From Planctomycetota bacterium (lineage in GTDB: Bacteria > Planctomycetota > Planctomycetia > Pirellulales > Pirellulaceae), in assembly GCA_024276655.1 (NCBI GenBank), contig JAJRWU010000135.1, forward strand, positions 1 to 37,719: a stretch of 37,719 bases of DNA. Direction: 5' to 3'. The position numbers and the translations under genes are program-made. A model generated the notes under the pieces. It did not search any database and was not told the origin of the DNA. It worked only from the letters and a program-made list of their open reading frames with translations. Positions 1 to 37,719 of this stretch are shown piece by piece. The number at the start of each line of letters is the position of its first letter. Within the stretch, counting starts at the first letter, position 1.

Positions 1-220
1 ATTGAATCAAAGTCCCTTGCTTTTGGCCTAAATGCGAAAAACGCAACCCAGAAATACTGCCTTTAGTCCGCTTTGTTACTCACGACTAGCGATTCACCAA
101 AACTCAACGTCACGCTGAACCAGTACATTAGGGCCAATCCAAGATCTATTCCGTGTTTTTCAGATGCCGGCAAGCCTCCGGTTTGGCGGGGATCTCATAA
201 GGCGAGCGACAGATGAAAAT

Positions 221-260
221 TTACCTAATACAAGCACGAAGCGCAAGCGAGTGAATCAGC
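221..260 (+). promoter_or_regulatory. Conserved 40-bp upstream motif TTACCTAATACAAGCACGAAGCGCAAGCGAGTGAATCAGC, copy 1, upstream of the H-NOX operon
   Basis: 36 of 41 nt are identical to the reverse complement of 37426-37467, which lies 16 bp upstream of the PepSY-TM gene ATG. In both cases the motif has the same orientation relative to the downstream gene. Confidence 0.45.
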
Positions 261-545
261 AAACGGTCATTCTCGCGTGGGTGGGAACCCAAAAAAACTC
301 ACGGACGCCCGTTGCGTGCGGGTAAGTTATTTTCCGCCGCTCGCCTGGCGGGTTCGGCTGTGCGGGCTGTAGGGGTATTGCCTTTTTTTGTGTATCGGCC
401 GGGTGTCTGCTTTTGCCGTCAAGATTTCCCGCCACGCCCGCCACTCATACGCAACCTATGTTTTCAAGCGGCATTTTGAATGCTCTTGGGCGCGAAATCG
501 AACCCAACCCACAAAAACCAACACCGAACCGCAAGGAACAGAAAC

Positions 546-1100
546 ATGAAAGGGGTCGTGTTTACCGAGTTCGTCGAGATGCTGGAGGAGACATTCTCGC
601 CGGAGTTAGTCGACGAGTTGTTCGGCGCGATCTCACTGCCCTCGAAAGGCGTCTATACTTCGGTCGGCACGTACGACCACAACGAACTGGTATCGCTGGT
701 TGTGGAATTGTCGAGACGAACCGACACCGCGGTTCCCAGCTTGATTCACGCCTTTGGCAAACACCTGGGAAAACAGTTCGTCGCCAAGTATCCGGCGTTT
801 TTCGACGCCGTTGAAGATGCGTTCGGTTTTTTCGAGCAGATCGACGGATACGTTCACGTCGAAGTTCGCAAACTGTACCCCGACGCCGAACTGCCGCGAT
901 TCCACACCAGGAGAGTCGGCGAACACGGGTTGGAAGTGGTTTACGAATCGGAGCGACCCTTCGCAGATTTGGCGCACGGCCTTATCGAGAACACGATCGA
1001 GCACTATGGCGAATCAATCGAGATCGAACGCCGGCCAACCGACAACGGCGAAGTGTTCGTACTATGGCAGAAATGCGAGACGCCGTCATGCCAGGGTTAG
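546..1100 (+). CDS. hnoX: H-NOX (haem nitric oxide/oxygen binding) sensor domain protein
   Basis: The N-terminus MKGVVFTEFVEMLEE is typical of H-NOX proteins. A Y-x-S-x-R haem-propionate motif (YESER) and a candidate proximal His (GYVHVEV) are present. ATG at 546 is preceded by AAGGA. It is coupled to a downstream histidine kinase. The ORF-track start at 480 adds 22 low-complexity residues and is less likely. Confidence 0.8.
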   Translation: MKGVVFTEFVEMLEETFSPELVDELFGAISLPSKGVYTSVGTYDHNELVSLVVELSRRTDTAVPSLIHAFGKHLGKQFVAKYPAFFDAVEDAFGFFEQIDGYVHVEVRKLYPDAELPRFHTRRVGEHGLEVVYESERPFADLAHGLIENTIEHYGESIEIERRPTDNGEVFVLWQKCETPSCQG

Positions 1101-2431
1101 ATGGCGTACTAAGCCGTTGGGAGCGGGAGCGGGAGGCTCGAAAGCAGGCCGAGCACCTCTTGGAACAGAAGAGCCGCGACCTGTATGAGAGTAAACAGCA
1201 ACTCGAAGATGCTCTCGCCAACGCTGAGTTGGCGACACGGGCGAAGAGTGAGTTTCTGGCGAACATGAGCCATGAAATTCGCACGCCAATGACCGCCATT
1301 CTCGGCTTCACCGATATTCTGCTCGGCAGTTTGGTTGAACCAGAAGACATCGCCGCCGCCCTGACCGTGAAAGAGAACGGCGAGTATCTGATCAACCTCA
1401 TCAACGACATTCTCGATTTATCCAAAATTGAAGCCGGGAAGATCGAAGTCGAACAAATCGAATGCTCCCCTCATGAAATTGCGGCCGACGTATCGTCGTT
1501 GATGAGAGTACGGGCGTCGGCCAAGGGTTTGCAGTTGAAAGTTCATTTCGACGACGCTCTTCCTGAAACGATCCAGAGCGATCCCACTCGGCTGCGGCAG
1601 ATTCTCATCAACCTCGTTGGTAATGCGATCAAGTTCACCGAAACGGGCTCGGTTCTGATTGTTGCTCACTTGCTGAACGCTCCGGGCGCGGAGCCGAAAC
1701 TGCAATTCGACGTGATCGACACCGGAATCGGGATCGCCGAGGAAAAAATCGAAAAGCTCTTCCAGCCGTTCACGCAAGCCGACAACTCAACAACTCGGCG
1801 GTTTGGCGGAACCGGCTTGGGGCTCACGATCAGCAAACGCATGGCGGAACTCCTCGGCGGCAAGGTTTCCATATCCAGTACGGTCGGCGAGGGAAGCACT
1901 TTTTCGGTCACGGTTGCCACGGGCCCGCTGGAGGACGTACGACAGATTCGCGACGCCGTTCCACCGGCTTGTAACAAAGTGGTTACAAAACATTCGTTAG
2001 ACCACGAAACCGAAACTCCGCTGCGCGATCGTCGGGTGTTGCTGGCCGAAGACGGGCCCGATAATCAACGGCTGATTGGCTTCATCTTGAAGCAGGAGGG
2101 CGCGGAGGTCACGCTGGCTGACAACGGGCAGATTGCCTTCGATCTCGCCGCCGCCGCTCGCGCGGAGGAACACCCTTTCGATGTGATCTTGATGGACATG
2201 CAAATGCCGGTGCTCGACGGCTACGCGGCCACGCGCCGATTGCGAAACGAAGGGCACTCCGGCCCGATTCTCGCCCTGACCGCTCATGCGATGGCCGGTG
2301 ATCGAGAGAAGTGCCTCAACGCCGGTTGCGATGACTTCCTCACCAAGCCGATTGACCGCCAGAAGTTGATCGCAACGGTGGCTGATTTCGCCTCGCGGCA
2401 AGAGACTCTTGCAGCGAACGATGCTCGGTAG
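1064..2431 (+). CDS. Hybrid sensor histidine kinase (HisKA + HATPase_c + C-terminal receiver), partner of H-NOX
   Basis: H-box FLANMSHEIRTPMTAILGF; N, G1 and G2 boxes (NLVGNAIKFT, DTGIGI, GGTGLGLTIS); a receiver domain with DVILMDMQMPVLDGY. It overlaps the H-NOX stop, so the two are probably translationally coupled. The start could be 1064, 1073 or 1088. Confidence 0.85.
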   Translation: MAEMRDAVMPGLDGVLSRWEREREARKQAEHLLEQKSRDLYESKQQLEDALANAELATRAKSEFLANMSHEIRTPMTAILGFTDILLGSLVEPEDIAAALTVKENGEYLINLINDILDLSKIEAGKIEVEQIECSPHEIAADVSSLMRVRASAKGLQLKVHFDDALPETIQSDPTRLRQILINLVGNAIKFTETGSVLIVAHLLNAPGAEPKLQFDVIDTGIGIAEEKIEKLFQPFTQADNSTTRRFGGTGLGLTISKRMAELLGGKVSISSTVGEGSTFSVTVATGPLEDVRQIRDAVPPACNKVVTKHSLDHETETPLRDRRVLLAEDGPDNQRLIGFILKQEGAEVTLADNGQIAFDLAAAARAEEHPFDVILMDMQMPVLDGYAATRRLRNEGHSGPILALTAHAMAGDREKCLNAGCDDFLTKPIDRQKLIATVADFASRQETLAANDAR

Positions 2432-2435
2432 CCGT

Positions 2436-3818
2436 TTAGTCGGCGGCAAATCCGTCCGGCAAGAGCGACCGAACGCGTTCGACGATCCGATCCTCGATCG
2501 GCGGTTGTACGCGTTCAGGAATTCCGTAGGAAATCGTGTTGCTCAGTGAGTTGCGAGCTTCGTAGCCGCCTTCATTCAAAACACGCTTGGAGGCGATGTA
2601 ATAAGTGATTTCATTGGTGTAGGCGTTGATCCACAATCGACTGCCGTCTAGCTCGCTTTTGATGCGCAATGCGTAATCGACGCCGGGTTCATCCGACAGA
2701 AAGACCATCGCCAGGTCATCGCCAAAAACCCACGTCGCGATTTGCACCGTTCTCGTTTTCGCCGGCTTCTGGCCACGTTCGAGTTCGGCCAGCACCCGCC
2801 CCAAGGCCCACGACTGGCCGACGCGTTTTCTTAGTTCATCGAGCGCGGGCGGTTCGTGGCAAGCGACTTCGAGTGGCCGACTACGCGCAACAAGCTCCGG
2901 TGTGATCGGCGTAAACTTGCCTTGCAACAATCGTTTCACTTCGTCGGCCATCGCCCGCCCGTGTTGCTCGCACAACTTGACCGTGCCGTGCGGGCAAGGG
3001 TCGGAATCGCCGCCGCAGCCGATGGTCACCAAGGCCACCGCGCCGGGATGATCGGCCTCAATAAACTCTTGGGCGCTGGCCGCCCAGTCGCCGTGAATTT
3101 GTTTGAAGTTGCCGCGCAGGGTCGTGTTGTGGCAGGCATAGTTCACGACCAACGCGATCAACTGATCGTTCTCGTCGACCACTCGCAACAGCGGCAGCGA
3201 GTGGTCGGCCAGTGCGCCGCCAACGCAGCCAAACCCGGTCCATCCGCCGTCCTTCAAAACTCGCCGGTTGGTGGCAAAACCGACCGTGCCTCGCGTCCAG
3301 GAAAGACGCCCCGGCCGGCGCGCCGTGATTGCGTCCAGCACCACTTTCTCTAAAAGATCGGTAAGCCGCCGCGCGTATGCTGTAATACGCTCGCTCTGGG
3401 CGGCAGTCATCGAAGCCGTGCCCGTCAGGTCGGGGCAGGAGTGGTTGTGGGAGTTGCATAACATGAACCGCTCCGGCTTCAACGGTGTTTTAGACTGCAC
3501 GCGGCGGAGGACTTCCGCTCGCAATTCGCCGGGCACATCGCCGCTATCGACGGTTAGCAGAACTGCGAGTTCTTCCCCTTTCTCGCCGCCAATCGCCAGG
3601 GCTTTCGCTTTCAAGCGGCCCGCGATCCCCTCCGATTCCGTGATTCGCGAGCCGTATCCATACATGCGCACCCGCTGTTTCGGAGTTATGTCGACCTTCG
3701 CGGCGCCCACAAGCGCGAGTTGCGCCTGTGCGGATTGCATGGCGCCGCCAGCAACAAACAGGAGCCCGGCGGCAACGCAAAAGACCCATCGAAGTTGAGA
3801 AACAAAGGTTTGGCGCAT
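2436..3818 (-). CDS. Secreted neutral/alkaline ceramidase-like hydrolase
   Basis: N-terminal signal peptide. The VDITP...GYG N-terminal block and overall length resemble the neutral ceramidase family (PF04734-like). Assigned by recall of the family rather than a search. Confidence 0.5.
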   Translation of the reverse strand: MRQTFVSQLRWVFCVAAGLLFVAGGAMQSAQAQLALVGAAKVDITPKQRVRMYGYGSRITESEGIAGRLKAKALAIGGEKGEELAVLLTVDSGDVPGELRAEVLRRVQSKTPLKPERFMLCNSHNHSCPDLTGTASMTAAQSERITAYARRLTDLLEKVVLDAITARRPGRLSWTRGTVGFATNRRVLKDGGWTGFGCVGGALADHSLPLLRVVDENDQLIALVVNYACHNTTLRGNFKQIHGDWAASAQEFIEADHPGAVALVTIGCGGDSDPCPHGTVKLCEQHGRAMADEVKRLLQGKFTPITPELVARSRPLEVACHEPPALDELRKRVGQSWALGRVLAELERGQKPAKTRTVQIATWVFGDDLAMVFLSDEPGVDYALRIKSELDGSRLWINAYTNEITYYIASKRVLNEGGYEARNSLSNTISYGIPERVQPPIEDRIVERVRSLLPDGFAAD

Positions 3819-3854
3819 GATCGACCGCTTTCTATTAGCAACCCATTGTAAAAA

Positions 3855-5228
3855 TCATTTCGGCGCGACTTCTTCCTTGGGTTCTTCCAATCGGACGAGA
3901 AGCCATTGCTGCGTTTGGCCGTCCTCGAAATGCAGCAATACGGGCGTGGTGTCTTGCGTTAGGTTCGAGATGCCCGTTTCCATGATCGGCCATTGCTTGC
4001 CGGCGACGCCCCAGGCGGAACGCTGGCTTTTCTGATCGATCATTCCCTCGATGGGCTCCGATTTTTCAGTGGCCGTGTTCTGGAACGTTCCCGCGATGAT
4101 GCCCTGTTTGTTGACGGCCAACTGCAGGAATAACGTTGGAGGCGGCCCCGATTTCTCGCCATCTTGCGTTACGGCGAACACGCCCAGCGGCATCCAGTCA
4201 ACGGCGTCGTCCACTTCGGGAGCGCTGGCGGCAATGGCCTGCGCCTGTTGGGCGTATTCGTCGGCCGAGGCGACGGCGTTCTCCCCGTAGTAAACGGTGT
4301 CGCCTTCATAATAAACGTTCTCGCCATAGCTGTAGGACACCGGCTCGCTCCAGCCCCACGGGAGCCAACCAGTCACTAGCCCCCAAGTGGCCCAGCGATA
4401 AGGACGATTCCAACGCCATCGCGCCCAGTTGGGGTGGCCTTTCCAAAAGTCATGACGTGGATGATAATTATGAAACTGGTTGCGCACTTCATCGCGACGG
4501 CCCTGGCGGCTCCCCAATCGCTCCTCGCGATTAGCGATTCGGTCGGGACGATTTCCCACCAAGTCACCCGGTCGGGGGCGAACAGGATCAATGCCAGGAC
4601 GCAGCCCTGGCCGCTGAGCGGGAAGTTGGGCGGGGCGTTGGCCGGCGTTGGGCAATTGGCCCGTCGCGGGTCGGTTTTTCAGAAATTCAGACGCCGCTCC
4701 GCCGGCGCCGGGCCGTGTTGCGGGAAGCGTTCCCGGCCTTCCTGTTGAGGGCCGGGAAGGATCCAAGAAGTTTTGCAATTGCCCTTGCGATGGCCGTCCG
4801 CCAACGCTGGGCCGTGTTCCCGCTCCGGGGCGCGTTGCGGGATTGCTGGGGCGTCCGCCAACACTGGGTCTTGTTCCCGCTCCGGGTCGCGCTACTGGGT
4901 TACTTGGCCGTCCGCCAACACTGGGTCGTGTTCCCGCGCCGGGTCGCGCCGCGGGACTGCTGGGGCGAGGACTGCTGGGGCGATGGGCCGGCCTTGCCGA
5001 GGGACGGCTAACAGACGGAGTGCGGCTAGGCGCCGAACGCGAATGGCCGCCGCCACTGAAACCACCTCCACCCCGACTGCCGCCCCCACCGCTGAAACCG
5101 CCACGGCCACCGCCTCCTCCGCCACGACCACCGCCTCCTCCGCCACGGCCGCCACGGGCTTGAACGTCGTTTGAAGATACAAAAATAACGATTGAGAATG
5201 CGATGAGAAAATATGCGAGCTTGTTCAT
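3855..5228 (-). CDS. Secreted Gly/Arg-rich, Pro/Ser-rich repeat protein with a globular C-terminal domain
   Basis: Signal peptide, then GGRGGGGGGRGG runs, three 19-aa repeats (ARPGAGTRPSVGGRPSNPV) encoded by 57-bp tandem DNA repeats, and a non-repetitive Trp-rich C-terminal domain. Confidence 0.6.
   Translation of the reverse strand: MNKLAYFLIAFSIVIFVSSNDVQARGGRGGGGGGRGGGGGGRGGFSGGGGSRGGGGFSGGGHSRSAPSRTPSVSRPSARPAHRPSSPRPSSPAARPGAGTRPSVGGRPSNPVARPGAGTRPSVGGRPSNPATRPGAGTRPSVGGRPSQGQLQNFLDPSRPSTGRPGTLPATRPGAGGAASEFLKNRPATGQLPNAGQRPAQLPAQRPGLRPGIDPVRPRPGDLVGNRPDRIANREERLGSRQGRRDEVRNQFHNYHPRHDFWKGHPNWARWRWNRPYRWATWGLVTGWLPWGWSEPVSYSYGENVYYEGDTVYYGENAVASADEYAQQAQAIAASAPEVDDAVDWMPLGVFAVTQDGEKSGPPPTLFLQLAVNKQGIIAGTFQNTATEKSEPIEGMIDQKSQRSAWGVAGKQWPIMETGISNLTQDTTPVLLHFEDGQTQQWLLVRLEEPKEEVAPK
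4796..4966. repeat. Three imperfect copies of a 57-bp tandem repeat inside the Gly/Arg-rich CDS
   Basis: Units start at 4796, 4853 and 4910, each with GTCCGCCAACRCTGGG. Confidence 0.8.
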
Positions 5229-6191: not shown

Positions 6192-6317
6192 CGAAGGTCT
6201 CTCTTTCTTTTGTCGAATGTTTGAATTGGTAAGGATCGTTCGAGAATTAGTTGTCCGACTTTGCTTGTACGATGGCCTTGGAAGGCCGTCGTGCAGCGGT
6301 AATTTCCCGCCCGATGT

Positions 6318-7832
6318 TTAACGGACCCGTTCAATTTCTCCCGGCTGCCAGGTTTTGTCAAACCACGACTCCAGGGGGCCGTAGAGGCGAAGAATGGTGT
6401 TCCAACCTTTGCCGGGGACGGTTTGGATCCAGTTGCTCTCCTTGCCTTTTGGCGCCTGGGGGCCGAAATAGATGTCGACCGAGGTGTCTGGGTTGATCAC
6501 GATGCCTTTCTTTTGGCTGCCAAGACTCGGGAATTGCTGGTCGGTTTGTAACATCGAGCGGGTTTGGTTGTCGTACGCCACGATCGACCAAAAATCCTTC
6601 GCGGGAATGCTGGGAGGCAAATGCAGGCGGTAAGTCTTGGCGCCGTCGAACGCGTTGTCATGGGAATCAACAAAAGCGGCGGCGTATTGTGATCCTACGC
6701 CCGCGGGCATTTTTTTGGCCATGGCCGGCGTGATGCCCGTGGCGTAAAAGAGCATGAAGGTCCGCCCATTGAGTATTCGCGCTCCGCCGTCAAGAAATTC
6801 GTGGTTGCCGCCAACGAAGGCGGTTCCCCACGCACTGTTCGGGTAGTACCGCTGGATTTTGTCCGGGTAGCGGAAGGTTAGGGCGCGCGCCGTGGCCGTG
6901 CCGACATTCGCGGCCTCCGCTAGAATTTTCCTCATGCGCGCATCTGGCGCGAACGGCTTGCCTTTTTGAATCCCGATGGAGGCCAGGGCGCCCAGGGTTT
7001 CTGGGTCCATCGCATCGGCGGGCTCATACTGGACAACCGCGTTCACTTCCTCAAAAAAGGCGTAGTCCATTGAATGCAGGGTGTTGAAGGCAATGCCCGA
7101 GGCGTTGGAGAATTTCATCTTGGGTGGATGGTTCTTACTCGCCAAAGGATACGCGCGAAACAGCTTTTTGGTCGCCGCAACCGCGGGCCGAGGGTCGCCG
7201 TCTACTTGGAACCCGCGCCAAACGACCCAGTTGCCGAAAGTGCGAGTACGAGCAACGTGGTAGCCGGCGGGAACGGCGCCATCGTAGCCGGGAGGCAAAA
7301 TGAGAAACTTGCCGCCCTGGCCCTTATCAGGACCCGCGTTGCCGAAGTCGACCACATAGTGAAACCAAGCATCGTAAATAAAACCAAGCACGTTTGGGGG
7401 CGTCTCGATGACCATCGGACCGTTTTTCACATCCAGCCACATCATGCAGTAAATGGAGTCCGTGTTAGCGGTGAGGAACAGGGCCTTGGAGTCCATCAGT
7501 TGCTCAAAGATAACCGCAGATGTGTTGTCGGGGCCGAAGGCGCGAATTCCTTCACGCATGGCATGCAGCGACGCAGCTGGAATGGAGGTCAGAACAGATT
7601 GCACGCCCCGCTGGAAATCGAGGTTGTCCAACACTTTTTTGACGGTTGCATTATCGGGGAAGCCGTCGGTGAACCTCAATGTTCCTAGGCGCGTTTCGAC
7701 GGAGTTCGGCGTCGCGACGCCCGGCGGGATGGGGGTGGTCATCTTCATTTTCGGCGCGGTCTGTGCGTGGACGGTCGCCAGAACAAAAACCAGTGAAATC
7801 GCCAATGAGCCGAATAAAGAACCGTTACGCAT
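6318..7832 (-). CDS. Secreted DUF1254/DUF1214 two-domain protein
   Basis: Signal peptide from MRNGSLFGSLAISLVFVLA. The C-terminal PAKDFWSIVAYD block is typical of DUF1214. Start chosen at the ATG at 7832; the ORF-track start at 7898 is upstream of the signal peptide. Confidence 0.55.
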   Translation of the reverse strand: MRNGSLFGSLAISLVFVLATVHAQTAPKMKMTTPIPPGVATPNSVETRLGTLRFTDGFPDNATVKKVLDNLDFQRGVQSVLTSIPAASLHAMREGIRAFGPDNTSAVIFEQLMDSKALFLTANTDSIYCMMWLDVKNGPMVIETPPNVLGFIYDAWFHYVVDFGNAGPDKGQGGKFLILPPGYDGAVPAGYHVARTRTFGNWVVWRGFQVDGDPRPAVAATKKLFRAYPLASKNHPPKMKFSNASGIAFNTLHSMDYAFFEEVNAVVQYEPADAMDPETLGALASIGIQKGKPFAPDARMRKILAEAANVGTATARALTFRYPDKIQRYYPNSAWGTAFVGGNHEFLDGGARILNGRTFMLFYATGITPAMAKKMPAGVGSQYAAAFVDSHDNAFDGAKTYRLHLPPSIPAKDFWSIVAYDNQTRSMLQTDQQFPSLGSQKKGIVINPDTSVDIYFGPQAPKGKESNWIQTVPGKGWNTILRLYGPLESWFDKTWQPGEIERVR

Positions 7833-8115
7833 GTTGTCTATTCCTTTGATGGGGTGCAATGATCGACCGCTCCACGGGCGAAGAGCTCGAACACACATGC
7901 TGGTTCCGAGGCCGTGAGCGAAAGAGACCGAGAATTGAGAATTTACCGAGTATAGCCGACCGCCTGCGTTAATAGCGCAATTTTCTATCCGGAATTCGGT
8001 AGAAGCGGTAAACCGCGAGATTTGGACGCGTTTCGCTCCATAGAGGATTTGACGGGGCGGCTTCTGAGCAGGCGGAGCCCTGCAAAAGGTGCTCGTTTAA
8101 CAGCTTGGCCCGGAG

Positions 8116-10130: not shown

Positions 10131-10886
10131 TCATTTTCCAGCCGCCGATTGAACCGGCTTGCGTTTGGTGAACGGCAACAGCATGGGCGTTGTCTGGCGG
10201 TACTGCTCATACGATTCCCCATGCTGCAAGACAAGCTCCCGTTCTTCCAAACGCACGCCAATGAAAATATAAACCGTTGTCACGGCGGCGAAGAGCAAAT
10301 GGCCGACCGTCATATTCGGCGTGGCCCAAAAGGCGATGATGAATCCCAGCATCAAAGGGTGTCGCACCAATCGATAGAGCAGCGGGGTTTGGAAGGGCGC
10401 CGTGGAGGGCTCCTTACCCAGCAGATGCAAAACGACCTGCCGCAAACCGAACAGCTCGAAATGGTCAATGAGAAAGGTGGAATAGAGCACCAAGCCGAAT
10501 CCTGCCGCGAACAACACATGGAAAACGGCGCGGATTCCAGGCGCCTCAACATTCCAAACCGTCGCGGGAATGGGCCGCCATTGCCAATACAACAACGCCA
10601 GAATGGCGGAGGTCAACAATACAAACGTGCTGCGCTCCACAACGGCGGGGATGACGCGAGTCCACCATTGTTTGAACTCGCGCCGGGCCATAATGGTGTG
10701 TTGCACGGCGAAGAGCGCCAACAAAGCCATGTTGACGGCAACCGCCATGGCGAGCGGCGTTTTCGGGCCGGAGTTAATCGTTTTGGGAACGATAAAACCG
10801 CCGAGGAATCCGATCACATACAAAAACACCGCTAGGAAAAACACGTACGCAAAAAGTCCATAAGCAAATGCAGCCAGTCGATTCAT
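10131..10886 (-). CDS. Membrane methyltransferase of the ICMT/PEMT/NnrU family
   Basis: Multi-TM protein with the C-terminal hallmark RHPLMLGFIIAFWATP...GVRLEERELVLQHGESYEQY. ATG at 10886 with a perfect GAGGAG RBS; the ORF-track start at 10979 is upstream of the first TM. Confidence 0.7.
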   Translation of the reverse strand: MNRLAAFAYGLFAYVFFLAVFLYVIGFLGGFIVPKTINSGPKTPLAMAVAVNMALLALFAVQHTIMARREFKQWWTRVIPAVVERSTFVLLTSAILALLYWQWRPIPATVWNVEAPGIRAVFHVLFAAGFGLVLYSTFLIDHFELFGLRQVVLHLLGKEPSTAPFQTPLLYRLVRHPLMLGFIIAFWATPNMTVGHLLFAAVTTVYIFIGVRLEERELVLQHGESYEQYRQTTPMLLPFTKRKPVQSAAGK

Positions 10887-10983
10887 CGCAAACTCCTCAG
10901 GGCATGATCCCTCTGCTCTGTTGTTTATACACAAATGCCCAGAGGCAATGCACGATGGCATTGGAAGGCCATCGTACAATTTA

Positions 10984-14895: not shown

Positions 14896-15228
14896 TTGAC
14901 CGAACAGCAGTGGTCGTTGATTCAGGCCTTGTTGCCCTCGCCAAAGAATCGCCAAGGAGGACGGCCCCGCACCGTTGCGATGCGGGAAGTCGTCAACGCA
15001 ATCATGTATCTCAATCGCACAGGCTGCCAGTGGGACATGCCGCCTCACGATTTGCGCCCTAAAATAAAAGTACTGTCTACGATTACTTCGCACAGTGTGG
15101 CGCGACGACGGAACCAGGACCGCCATTGTCACGGCGCTTCGCGAGCAGATTCGCGTTCAGGAAGGTCGCCTATCGACCCCCAGCGCCGCCTGCATCGACA
15201 GCCAATCCATCAAGACCACCGGCTAATG
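14896..15228 (+). pseudogene. IS5-family (DUF4096 N-terminal type) transposase remnant, frameshifted and truncated
   Basis: MTEQQWSLIQALLPSPKNRQGGRPRTVAMREVVNAIMYLNRTGCQWDMPPHDL matches the IS5/IS4-family transposase N-terminus. Two frameshifts are needed to read TVYDYF and WRDDGT...SAACIDSQSIKTTG. The DDE domain is absent. It ends abutting a copy of the TIR-type repeat. Confidence 0.7.
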
Positions 15229-15253
15229 GCTGGCAAGCCTCCGGCTTGGCGGG
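15214..15253 (+). repeat. Family-2 repeat end (GACCACCGGCTAATGGCTGGCAAGCCTCCGGCTTGGCGGG) at the transposase remnant
   Basis: Homologous to the inverted ends of the element at 33233-33435, to 20085-20151 (reverse complement) and to 166-191. The homology continues about 45 bp further, shared with rc 20030-20084. Confidence 0.6.
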
Positions 15254-15285
15254 AATTTCAACACACCATTGCACGGAATATCTCT

Positions 15286-15341
15286 TGGACAGCGCCTAAC
15301 TGGACAGCTCCTAACTGGACAGCTCCTAACTGGACAGCGCC
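15286..15341. repeat. 15-bp tandem repeat TGGACAGCKCCTAAC, about 3.7 copies
   Basis: Seen directly. Encodes the NWTAPNWTAPNWTAP run in a spurious ORF. Confidence 0.8.
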
Positions 15342-15429
15342 AGGTTCTCCGTTTTTCAGATATGTTGTGGTCCAGTTTGACGTGCTATCACAACATGCTG
15401 TGGTTTTTCTGGAAGATGGCGCTGTTCAG

Positions 15430-15699
15430 CTAAGCCGCCAGCCGCACCGGCTTTTGTTCCTCGAACAAATTCACGGTGCGCAACATGGCGCCGTCTTCGT
15501 CGTAGAATTGCAGCAGGCCGACGTCGATCATCCACATGGCCATGAAATCGCCGCAGCGGTAGGAATGAGCGCGAACCTTGCCGCTATCGACCAGGAATGT
15601 CTCGGCGACGCCGCCGGGCATTGCCACATCGGCGCCCAATTCGAGAAAGGTGCGGGCGACAATCAGTTTCACTTCGTGAGAAAAAGGGGCGACTCTCAT
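15430..15699 (-). CDS. Hypothetical small protein (89 aa)
   Basis: ORF with an ATG start. A small palindrome GCAATATCCTTATTGC overlaps the start region. No known motif. Confidence 0.35.
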   Translation of the reverse strand: MRVAPFSHEVKLIVARTFLELGADVAMPGGVAETFLVDSGKVRAHSYRCGDFMAMWMIDVGLLQFYDEDGAMLRTVNLFEEQKPVRLAA

Positions 15700-16140
15700 T
15701 TCGCAATATCCTTATTGCATAATGGCTGGCGGCGTCCTGCCGCGAATAGCCTGGTAGTGTAGCAACAAGGCGTTTCCACACCTAGAACAGTTGTGCATCG
15801 CCTACGAGTGTTATCGTCGGTGCAACGGTCGGTCATCGCGAGAATGCGTTTGCCCGTCTCAAAACGGAGAATTGATCCATTTTCCGCGCTAAGACGGCTG
15901 AAAACCGTGTTGAACGCGAAGGATACGCAAAACAGGAGCAACAGGAAGGATTTGCGGAATTCAAAAGATAGTGCAGTTGAAGAGGATTGCCGGCCGTGCG
16001 GCATCTGTTCGGCGCGTCGCTGAAGCAGGCCGATGGCGGGATGCCGCCTCAGGCGTTATGATGTTGGCGTACCTCCGAAAGGAAGGCCGGCCAGGGTAGG
16101 CCGGCCTCTATCCCGCTCCCCCTCGAATCTCAACAGAATC

Positions 16141-21436: not shown

Positions 21437-21483
21437 AAAGCCGTGGAGTAATGGTTACCGATTATGATGCGGAAAAGCCCGGC

Positions 21484-21512
21484 ATTTTCAAAATGCCGGG
21501 CTCATGATTCGA
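21484..21512. terminator. Palindromic hairpin terminator, family copy 3, shared by the convergent PRMT-like and csrA genes
   Basis: AAAAGCCCGGCATTTTCAAAATGCCGGGCT. Confidence 0.6.
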
Positions 21513-28595: not shown

Positions 28596-28624
28596 GATCT
28601 ATTCGAGAGCATGTTTGCCGAGTT

Positions 28625-28658
28625 AAAAGCCCGGCATTTTCAAAATGCCGGGCTTTTT
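28625..28658. terminator. Palindromic hairpin terminator, family copy 4
   Basis: AAAAGCCCGGCATTTTCAAAATGCCGGGCTTTTT. Confidence 0.6.
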
Positions 28659-36352: not shown

Positions 36353-36385
36353 AAAAGCCCGGCATTTCCAAAATGCCGGGCTTTT
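36353..36385. terminator. Palindromic hairpin terminator, family copy 5
   Basis: AAAAGCCCGGCATTTCCAAAATGCCGGGCTTTT. Confidence 0.6.
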
Positions 36386-37467: not shown

Positions 37468-37620
37468 TTGTACACGTTCACGGGTTTGGAACCGCCGGAC
37501 AGATTGCTATCGCAACTCCACGCGCCTTGGGCGGAAATCCAGACGTCGCTCGGAGGTTTCTGGGCGGACATTTCAACGGTCGAGTAGAGGAGGAGCGTCA
37601 ATGACGCCCCTCCCCCCTCA

Positions 37621-37655
<35 letters not shown>

Positions 37656-37719
37656 ACCAAAGGCATTTCGTCGGTCGGCACACGCAGACTCAGAGGTCGC
37701 CACGGAGCTTCTTTAGTCC

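Follow-up and report, generated by a model that had tools for sequence, protein, structure and literature searches.

A two-gene H-NOX and hybrid histidine kinase module, predicted to sense nitric oxide, in a Planctomycetaceae bacterium

Contig JAJRWU010000135.1 of a Planctomycetota bacterium (assembly GCA_024276655.1) carries, on its forward strand, the gene of a stand-alone H-NOX haem protein (hnoX) followed directly by that of a hybrid histidine kinase. The window analyzed here is the entire contig, 37,719 bp in length. The two genes very likely form a co-transcribed module for sensing nitric oxide (NO) in a Planctomycetaceae bacterium, with the H-NOX protein controlling the adjoining kinase, which lacks a sensory domain of its own. 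An earlier reading of the sequence alone (the original prediction) had placed an H-NOX sensor and a hybrid kinase at positions 546 to 2431; both genes are indeed found there, with Pfam scores far beyond chance.

The pair is an ordinary two-gene gas-sensing module; what is new is the host lineage, not the mechanism. It extends the well-characterised combination of H-NOX and sensor-less hybrid kinase to the Planctomycetota and illustrates that, within one H-NOX clade, an Hpt domain and an output regulator are present in some loci and absent in others. Its features are of use for annotation and for the choice of a tractable planctomycete system, and they open no new mechanistic question. Three features are specific to the locus, namely a 13-nt gene overlap, a Cys-x4-Cys tail on the H-NOX protein, and the missing Hpt and HD-GYP components of sister loci. 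They leave this basic reading unchanged. The view that such pairs are little studied in this lineage agrees with the literature: our searches yielded no study joining H-NOX and Planctomycetes, and no H-NOX study for Planctomycetota, with one review on cyclic di-GMP (c-di-GMP) mentioning both H-NOX and “Planctomycet”.

The product of hnoX is confirmed as a genuine haem protein of the H-NOX family. It matches the Pfam HNOB profile (PF07700; cut-off 25.5 bits) end to end, over profile positions 1-162 of 163, with a score of 124 bits (E 7e-36); the NCBIfam search returned no model matching it. The hidden Markov model (HMM) searches that the original prediction proposed for the two proteins thus all gave matches, to HNOB as well as to HisKA, HATPase_c and Response_reg. 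In a phmmer search of the Protein Data Bank (PDB), the nearest solved relatives are all H-NOX proteins, led by 6ocv (E 7e-42) and 6bde (E 8e-36). Residues were compared in a MAFFT alignment of 15 sequences, consisting of the window protein, the Tt, So (Shewanella oneidensis), Sw (Shewanella woodyi) and Ka (Kordia algicida) H-NOX proteins and ten homologs; the Tt (1u4h) and So (2kii) sequences match their PDB copies exactly. Identity to the window protein is 39% for Sw, 35% for Ka and 23% for So H-NOX. A second alignment of 43 homologous sequences served as input for an AlphaFold2 model, which has a predicted local distance difference test score (pLDDT) of 86.9 and a predicted template modelling score (pTM) of 0.84. 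The model contains the H-NOX fold, with its helical distal and alpha/beta proximal subdomains. Foldseek gives template modelling (TM) scores of 0.87 against Ka (6bde), 0.86 against So, 0.82 against Sw and 0.78 against Tt H-NOX, and the best 45 PDB matches are all H-NOX proteins or the beta subunit of soluble guanylate cyclase. The protein has no transmembrane segment.

As shown by these alignments, the protein has every residue for holding haem b. The reading as H-NOX withstands a comparison with Tt H-NOX, since the proximal histidine and the Y-x-S-x-R motif fall at the H-NOX structural positions: the columns of H104, P117, Y133, S135 and R137 are invariant in both the 15- and the 43-sequence alignment, and the model superposes on solved H-NOX proteins with TM scores of 0.86-0.87. 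The conserved proline is linked to haem distortion in Tt H-NOX. The hinge glycine (Gly71) is also present, as in the Ka and Sw proteins, and the haem ligands are identical to theirs. In H-NOX biochemistry, the distal hydrogen-bond network of the Tt protein (Trp9/Asn74/Tyr140) is associated with O2 binding, and an apolar pocket with NO selectivity. The window protein does not match this network; the equivalent residues are the apolar F9, L74 and L142, which offer no hydrogen-bond donor. Because its distal pocket is apolar, the protein is predicted to be NO-selective rather than O2-binding. Of the initial label of an NO/O2 sensor, the NO part is therefore retained and the O2 part is dropped. A precedent is SiliH-NOX, which also has a hybrid kinase as partner and an O2 affinity too low to be measurable; its Soret band is reported at 426 nm in the Fe(II) form and at 399 nm in the Fe(II)-NO form, a 5-coordinate nitrosyl (PMC4436077).

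The downstream gene encodes a soluble kinase with the domain order HisKA, HATPase_c, Response_reg and no further Pfam domain. Pfam thereby bears out the proposal of a hybrid kinase with its own receiver, and finds in it neither an Hpt domain nor a sensory input domain. No hydrophobic or transmembrane segment was detected in the kinase, with a membrane protein of the window as positive control. In the homolog alignment, the H-box, the N, G1, F and G2 boxes and, in the receiver, the E/D pair, D370, T398 and K420 are invariant; judged from these motifs, the catalytic residues are all intact. No named orthology can be claimed for the kinase, as it falls under every NCBIfam equivalog cut-off (BarA, TorS, LuxQ, NahK and others). 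The models for NosP-associated kinases (NahK/ErcS; NF041832 and NF041831) were considered and rejected: scores of 167 bits against a cut-off of 400 and 118.5 against 1500 reflect generic similarity among hybrid kinases. Compared with the planctomycete homologs of loci L002 and L004, the coiled coil preceding HisKA lacks 18 residues. Because 18 residues are not a whole number of heptads, the shortening could alter the helix register and the sign of the signal.

In a genome scan, an hnoX-kinase module 97% identical in amino-acid sequence was recovered from “MAG: Planctomycetaceae bacterium isolate SZUA-33” (locus L007; QIKY01), a metagenome-assembled genome (MAG). The block from 318 to 2437 is 95.6% identical to SZUA-33 at the nucleotide level. 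Comparison of the two gives ratios of nonsynonymous to synonymous substitution rates (dN/dS) of 0.20 (hnoX) and 0.19 (kinase gene); since both values are about 0.2, the two genes are maintained by purifying selection. Homology ends abruptly to the left of position 318, and positions 1-317 are unrelated. The conserved block thus includes a non-coding leader ahead of hnoX, which is presumed to hold the promoter and the 5′ untranslated region. An AGGAA lies 9 nt ahead of the hnoX ATG. A scan of positions 1-2700 found no sigma-70 promoter consensus. An Rfam search of positions 1-600 found no family at E up to 1, and the leader therefore contains no known riboswitch.

The end of hnoX and the start of the kinase gene overlap, as the original prediction held; the details are corrected here to an overlap of 13 nt in the form ATG-N7-TAG, in place of the 4-nt ATGA type. 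The kinase is 447 amino acids long with a 13-nt overlap because its start is ATG 1088, where gene callers begin the gene and from which homologous kinases align at the same methionine. A start at ATG 1064, which would give 455 amino acids, was rejected: this codon is ACG in SZUA-33, and the 455-residue form is absent from the protein collection, which holds the 447-residue form. ATG 1073 may serve as an alternative start, with an overlap of 28 nt. The 13-nt overlap is called in loci L001, L007, L033, L034, L035 and L036, and an alignment shows the ATG-N7-TAG geometry in another four diverged loci (L033, L034, L035/L036). As this geometry is conserved in the clade, the arrangement implies co-transcription and probably also coupled translation.

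The neighbourhood of this H-NOX clade was surveyed in 22 genome loci from several phyla. In 19 of them, the gene directly after hnoX aligns with the window kinase through the receiver (seven were checked with Pfam), and the clade is paired with hybrid kinases in Planctomycetota, Bacteroidota, Chloroflexota, Bacillota and Pseudomonadota. Other relatives are found in Planctomycetota MAGs, on contigs carrying typical planctomycete families such as PSCyt/PSD1, DUF1501 and the PF07638 sigma factor of the extracytoplasmic function (ECF) type. Three kinase architectures recur. The window shares a plain histidine kinase-receiver (HK-REC) layout with L002, L004, L012, L017 and L035. A second receiver follows (HK-REC-REC) in L015 (Paenibacillus) and L019 (Microvirga), as determined with Pfam, and the kinases of the other Paenibacillus loci are about as long. 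A fused Hpt domain (HK-REC-Hpt) is present in L008-L010, L013, L026-L028, L031 and L034, and L030 has a stand-alone Hpt open reading frame (ORF) right after the kinase gene. The loci closest to the window for which long context is available (L008-L010; H-NOX 65% identical) encode an HK-REC-Hpt kinase followed by a receiver-HD-GYP gene, whose product in L009 has 409 amino acids; the kinase of L034 (H-NOX 68% identical) is likewise HK-REC-Hpt. A receiver-HD-GYP gene also lies upstream in L015, by Pfam, and downstream of the kinase in L005, after a receiver-SpoIIE gene.

Some of these loci have layouts of separate interest. In Firmicutes, the H-NOX domains described to date are reportedly joined to chemotaxis receptors, and the layout seen in Paenibacillus would be unusual for that group. 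Pfam resolves L015 as a four-gene cluster of receiver-HD-GYP, stand-alone H-NOX, HK-REC-REC and single receiver. The same layout is indicated by BLAST only for L018, L020-L023 and L025, each with a receiver-containing ORF of about 350 amino acids upstream. In Microvirga (L019), the neighbouring gene encodes a protein with HisKA, receiver and nucleotide cyclase domains.

Several characterised systems are built in a similar way. In Silicibacter sp. TrichCH4B, NO-bound SiliH-NOX inhibits autophosphorylation of the hybrid kinase SiliHK, which relays via the unlinked SiliHpt to SiliDGC (Rao, Smith and Marletta 2015, PMC4436077). The two modules share a stand-alone, NO-selective H-NOX (in the window by prediction) beside a kinase core with a receiver aspartate (D386 there, D370 in the window); in the SiliHK system, the gene for the Hpt protein lies at another place in the genome, and signalling ends at a c-di-GMP enzyme. 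The likeness drawn here is one of architecture, and the Silicibacter system differs in its alphaproteobacterial host and in ending in a diguanylate cyclase, not an HD-GYP protein. In Vibrio harveyi and V. parahaemolyticus, NO-bound H-NOX inhibits HqsK, a cytosolic kinase with no sensory domain whose signal goes to the unlinked Hpt protein LuxU (PMC6769237, PMC6759604). The window kinase is likewise a sensor-less cytosolic hybrid kinase; the LuxU/LuxO quorum-sensing output of HqsK, however, is not expected in planctomycetes. In the hnoX-hahK operon of V. fischeri, genetics show that HnoX restrains the kinase, that H222 and D506 of HahK are required and that the Hpt of SypF or LuxU is used (PMC12369376). 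Here too, a two-gene hnoX-kinase operon encodes a phosphorylatable histidine and a receiver aspartate, and in V. fischeri the Hpt function is borrowed from other proteins. Compared with H62 and D370 of the window kinase, H222 and D506 lie some 140-160 residues later in the sequence, so the N-terminal part of HahK must be longer; its outputs are syp biofilm formation and luminescence.

The prototype of the family fits less well. In S. oneidensis, HnoX and HnoK are reportedly encoded by adjacent genes, with NO-bound H-NOX inhibiting autophosphorylation and with an HD-GYP-type protein that controls c-di-GMP among the response regulators. HnoK is said not to be a hybrid kinase and to phosphorylate its regulators directly. 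In addition, So H-NOX is a distant relative of the window protein (23% identity, as above); Vibrio H-NOX proteins group with it. The closest solved relatives of the window H-NOX are instead those of Ka (6bdd/6bde) and Sw (6ocv); the Sw protein reportedly works with a diguanylate cyclase/phosphodiesterase and not with a kinase. The original prediction had called the pair HnoX-HnoK-type: the pairing of H-NOX and kinase is upheld, and the likeness to the prototype is not, the window being closer to the hybrid variants SiliHK, HqsK and HahK. Because HnoK is reportedly non-hybrid, “HqsK/SiliHK-type” is the more exact label. The window kinase fits the HqsK/HahK/SiliHK type in being adjacent to and co-oriented with hnoX, cytosolic and sensor-less, with intact phospho-histidine, ATP-binding and receiver motifs.

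By analogy with SiliH-NOX/SiliHK, HnoX/HqsK and HnoX/HahK, the H-NOX protein would supply the input domain that the kinase lacks. Binding of NO to the ferrous haem would change the conformation of H-NOX, which would in turn inhibit autophosphorylation of His62. Less phosphoryl would then flow from His62 to Asp370 and onward, through an Hpt protein whose gene lies elsewhere, to a response regulator. The sister loci suggest that the terminal output is most likely a receiver-HD-GYP protein acting as a c-di-GMP phosphodiesterase, in which case NO would shift c-di-GMP levels and hence the choice between attachment and motility. On these analogies, the best inference is that phosphoryl groups pass along a His-Asp-His-Asp chain, with an unlinked Hpt as intermediate, to a regulator that degrades c-di-GMP. 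The original prediction had proposed a phosphorelay to an unlinked partner; this proposal gains support from the sister kinases, which carry a fused Hpt and are followed by a receiver-HD-GYP gene.

Four points weigh against this scheme. No Hpt domain, and no receiver beyond the kinase's own, is encoded on the 37.7-kb contig, as judged by a six-frame scan of 438 ORFs of at least 50 amino acids with Hpt and receiver HMMs built from the related loci, which recovered its positive controls. Pfam likewise found no output regulator among 32 of the larger ORFs, so that the window holds no cognate regulator, as had been remarked at the outset. The five other HK-REC loci listed above are similarly devoid of a linked partner and so are uninformative on the output. 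Where outputs do lie beside the clade, they vary (HD-GYP, single receiver and, in L019, receiver-nucleotide cyclase), and because of this variation the proposal of an HD-GYP output reflects only the most frequent neighbour. Finally, the binding of haem and of NO, the direction of the regulation and the contact between H-NOX and kinase are all inferred.

The phosphorelay has two competitors that concern the kinase. The receiver could be a phosphate sink within the kinase or an autoinhibitory module, with His62 passing its phosphoryl group directly to an unlinked regulator, or with no downstream partner, and with no Hpt involved. We regard this as rather unlikely. It would account for the lack of an Hpt in the kinase and on the contig and for the recurrence of Hpt-less HK-REC kinases, with nothing linked, in independent lineages (L002, L004, L012, L017, L035); the tandem receivers without Hpt of the Paenibacillus and Microvirga relatives also suggest regulatory roles for receivers. 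Set against it, every characterised hybrid kinase governed by H-NOX needs both its receiver aspartate and an Hpt, as with D386 of SiliHK and SiliHpt (PMC4436077) or D506 of HahK and the Hpt of SypF or LuxU (PMC12369376). Moreover, in the closest relatives with longer kinases an Hpt is fused immediately behind the same receiver, and L030 has an Hpt ORF next to its kinase gene. The pair could also be a decaying, non-functional remnant of an hnoX / HK-REC-Hpt / REC-HD-GYP operon from which the Hpt and the regulator were deleted. Such a history would suit the Hpt and HD-GYP genes of the closest long-context relatives, the end of the kinase gene only 4 nt before a convergent gene, and the differing flanks of the module in two 96%-identical strains. 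It is hardly credible given that two strains have preserved both ORFs without disruption, at a dN/dS of about 0.2, that every catalytic residue is conserved and that the short HK-REC architecture is stable in distant lineages.

Another competitor concerns the signal and involves, in one of its two variants, the C-terminal tail of the H-NOX protein (QKCETPSCQG), which holds its only cysteines. Among the 120 best matches and five cluster members, the Cys-x4-Cys tail is kept solely in the nearest relatives (P0002, P0003, P0004, P0121 and P0125), with a variant in P0076. It is absent from the aligned Tt, So, Sw and Ka proteins and from all solved H-NOX proteins, including the closest, those of Ka and Sw. 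Thiol-based, haem-independent redox sensing has been reported for Vibrio cholerae (Vc) H-NOX, and the So and Vc proteins have a four-ligand zinc site. The window H-NOX might accordingly report O2, as proteins such as that of Tt (1u55) bind this gas, or sense oxidants through its two cysteines, instead of reporting NO; the conservation of the tail in the nearest relatives would be in keeping with the latter. Both variants together appear very improbable. Sensing of O2 conflicts with the replacement of W9, N74 and Y140 of Tt by F9, L74 and L142 and with the behaviour of SiliH-NOX, which has no measurable O2 affinity (PMC4436077). As for cysteine sensing, the tail is disordered in the AlphaFold2 model, with low confidence (pLDDT about 45), and two cysteines are too few for a four-ligand zinc site. 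Furthermore, the tail codons overlap or directly precede the kinase start, so their conservation may reflect translation signals.

Sensing of NO by the haem therefore remains the preferred function, and the tail may add to it in one more speculative way. A sessile-versus-swimmer life cycle is typical of Planctomycetaceae. It is conceivable, if unlikely, that in a small planctomycete clade the H-NOX protein acquired a further input, based on thiols or metal, through the Cys-x4-Cys tail, and that a kinase without a fused Hpt or a linked HD-GYP gene feeds an unlinked relay coupling NO or redox signals to this life cycle. A parallel would be the dimorphic Caulobacter, in which H-NOX affects cell-cycle progression and c-di-GMP (PMC10746521).

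Table 1. Positions of the hnoX-kinase module and its features in the window.
Feature	Position	Strand	Basis or remark
Terminator-like hairpin	307-323		Precedes leader
Non-coding leader ahead of hnoX, conserved; presumed to hold promoter and 5′ untranslated region	318-545	+	Block identity to SZUA-33
hnoX, stand-alone H-NOX haem sensor, 184 amino acids	546-1100	+	Pfam HNOB, PDB phmmer, alignment, AlphaFold2, Foldseek
Distal pocket F9 / L74 / L142	in hnoX	+	In place of Tt hydrogen-bond network W9 / N74 / Y140
Proximal haem ligand His104	855-857	+	Aligns with Tt H102, So H103, Sw H104
Pro117	in hnoX	+	Aligns with Tt P115
Tyr133, propionate binding	942-944	+	Aligns with Tt Y131
Ser135, propionate binding	948-950	+	Aligns with Tt S133
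Arg137, propionate binding	954-956	+	Aligns with Tt R135
Codons of Cys177-x4-Cys182 tail	1074-1091	+	H-NOX residues 177-182, clade-specific
Overlap of hnoX and kinase gene, 13 nt (ATG 1088, TAG 1098-1100)	1088-1100	+	Direct reading; relatives
Hybrid histidine kinase, soluble, 447 amino acids	1088-2431	+	Pfam, alignment
N-terminal charged coiled coil, about 50 amino acids	1088-1240	+	Homolog alignment
HisKA	about 1241-1438	+	Pfam, E 4e-18
Phospho-His62 (H-box SHEIRTP)	1271-1273	+	Invariant among homologs
HATPase_c	about 1580-1915	+	Pfam, E 5e-29
Receiver (Response_reg)	about 2036-2380	+	Pfam, E 1e-27
Phospho-Asp370	2195-2197	+	Invariant among homologs

The surroundings of the module differ from those in SZUA-33 at window positions 1-317, 2438-3853 and 6207-8115. 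Two of these differences are gene-sized insertions or deletions: a ceramidase-like gene of 1.4 kb (2436-3818, minus strand), which is missing from SZUA-33, and a DUF1214/DUF1254 gene (6318-7898, minus strand). In SZUA-33, the gene upstream of hnoX encodes a multi-pass membrane protein, not a regulator. A transposase fragment of the IS4/IS5 type (DUF4096) is present at 14896-15762 on the plus strand of the window. A 79-nt piece of it (15216-15294) matches L007 positions 1423-1501 in inverted orientation at 82% identity, immediately ahead of the conserved block with hnoX in that strain, which hints at insertion-sequence activity beside the module in SZUA-33. In addition, a short palindromic intergenic repeat with matches in both orientations recurs at 21453-21511, 28618-28658 and 36353-36385, and is also found in the SZUA-33 spacer directly after the kinase gene (L007 3671-3711). 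It may be an element resembling repetitive extragenic palindromes (REP-like) or a bidirectional terminator.

Further observations were made elsewhere on the contig. A membrane protein of the NnrU family is encoded at 10131-10979 on the minus strand (Pfam 30.3 bits, cut-off 24.7), and the gene is conserved in SZUA-33. The family is named after a gene needed for expression of NO and nitrite reductases; at 7.7 kb from the kinase gene, this link to NO is too weak to count as context. The product of the gene at 3855-5228 (minus strand) is 457 residues long, has a Gly/Arg-rich stretch at its N-terminus as well as RPGAGTRPSVGGRPSNP-like repeats in tandem, and gave no Pfam match; the DNA of this gene is only 88% identical to SZUA-33, where a much shorter gene is called. 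Near the other end of the contig, positions 37579-37657 (minus strand) match the Rfam model of group II introns (RF00029) over its full length with 52.7 bits against a gathering threshold of 40, located 62 nt from the right contig end.

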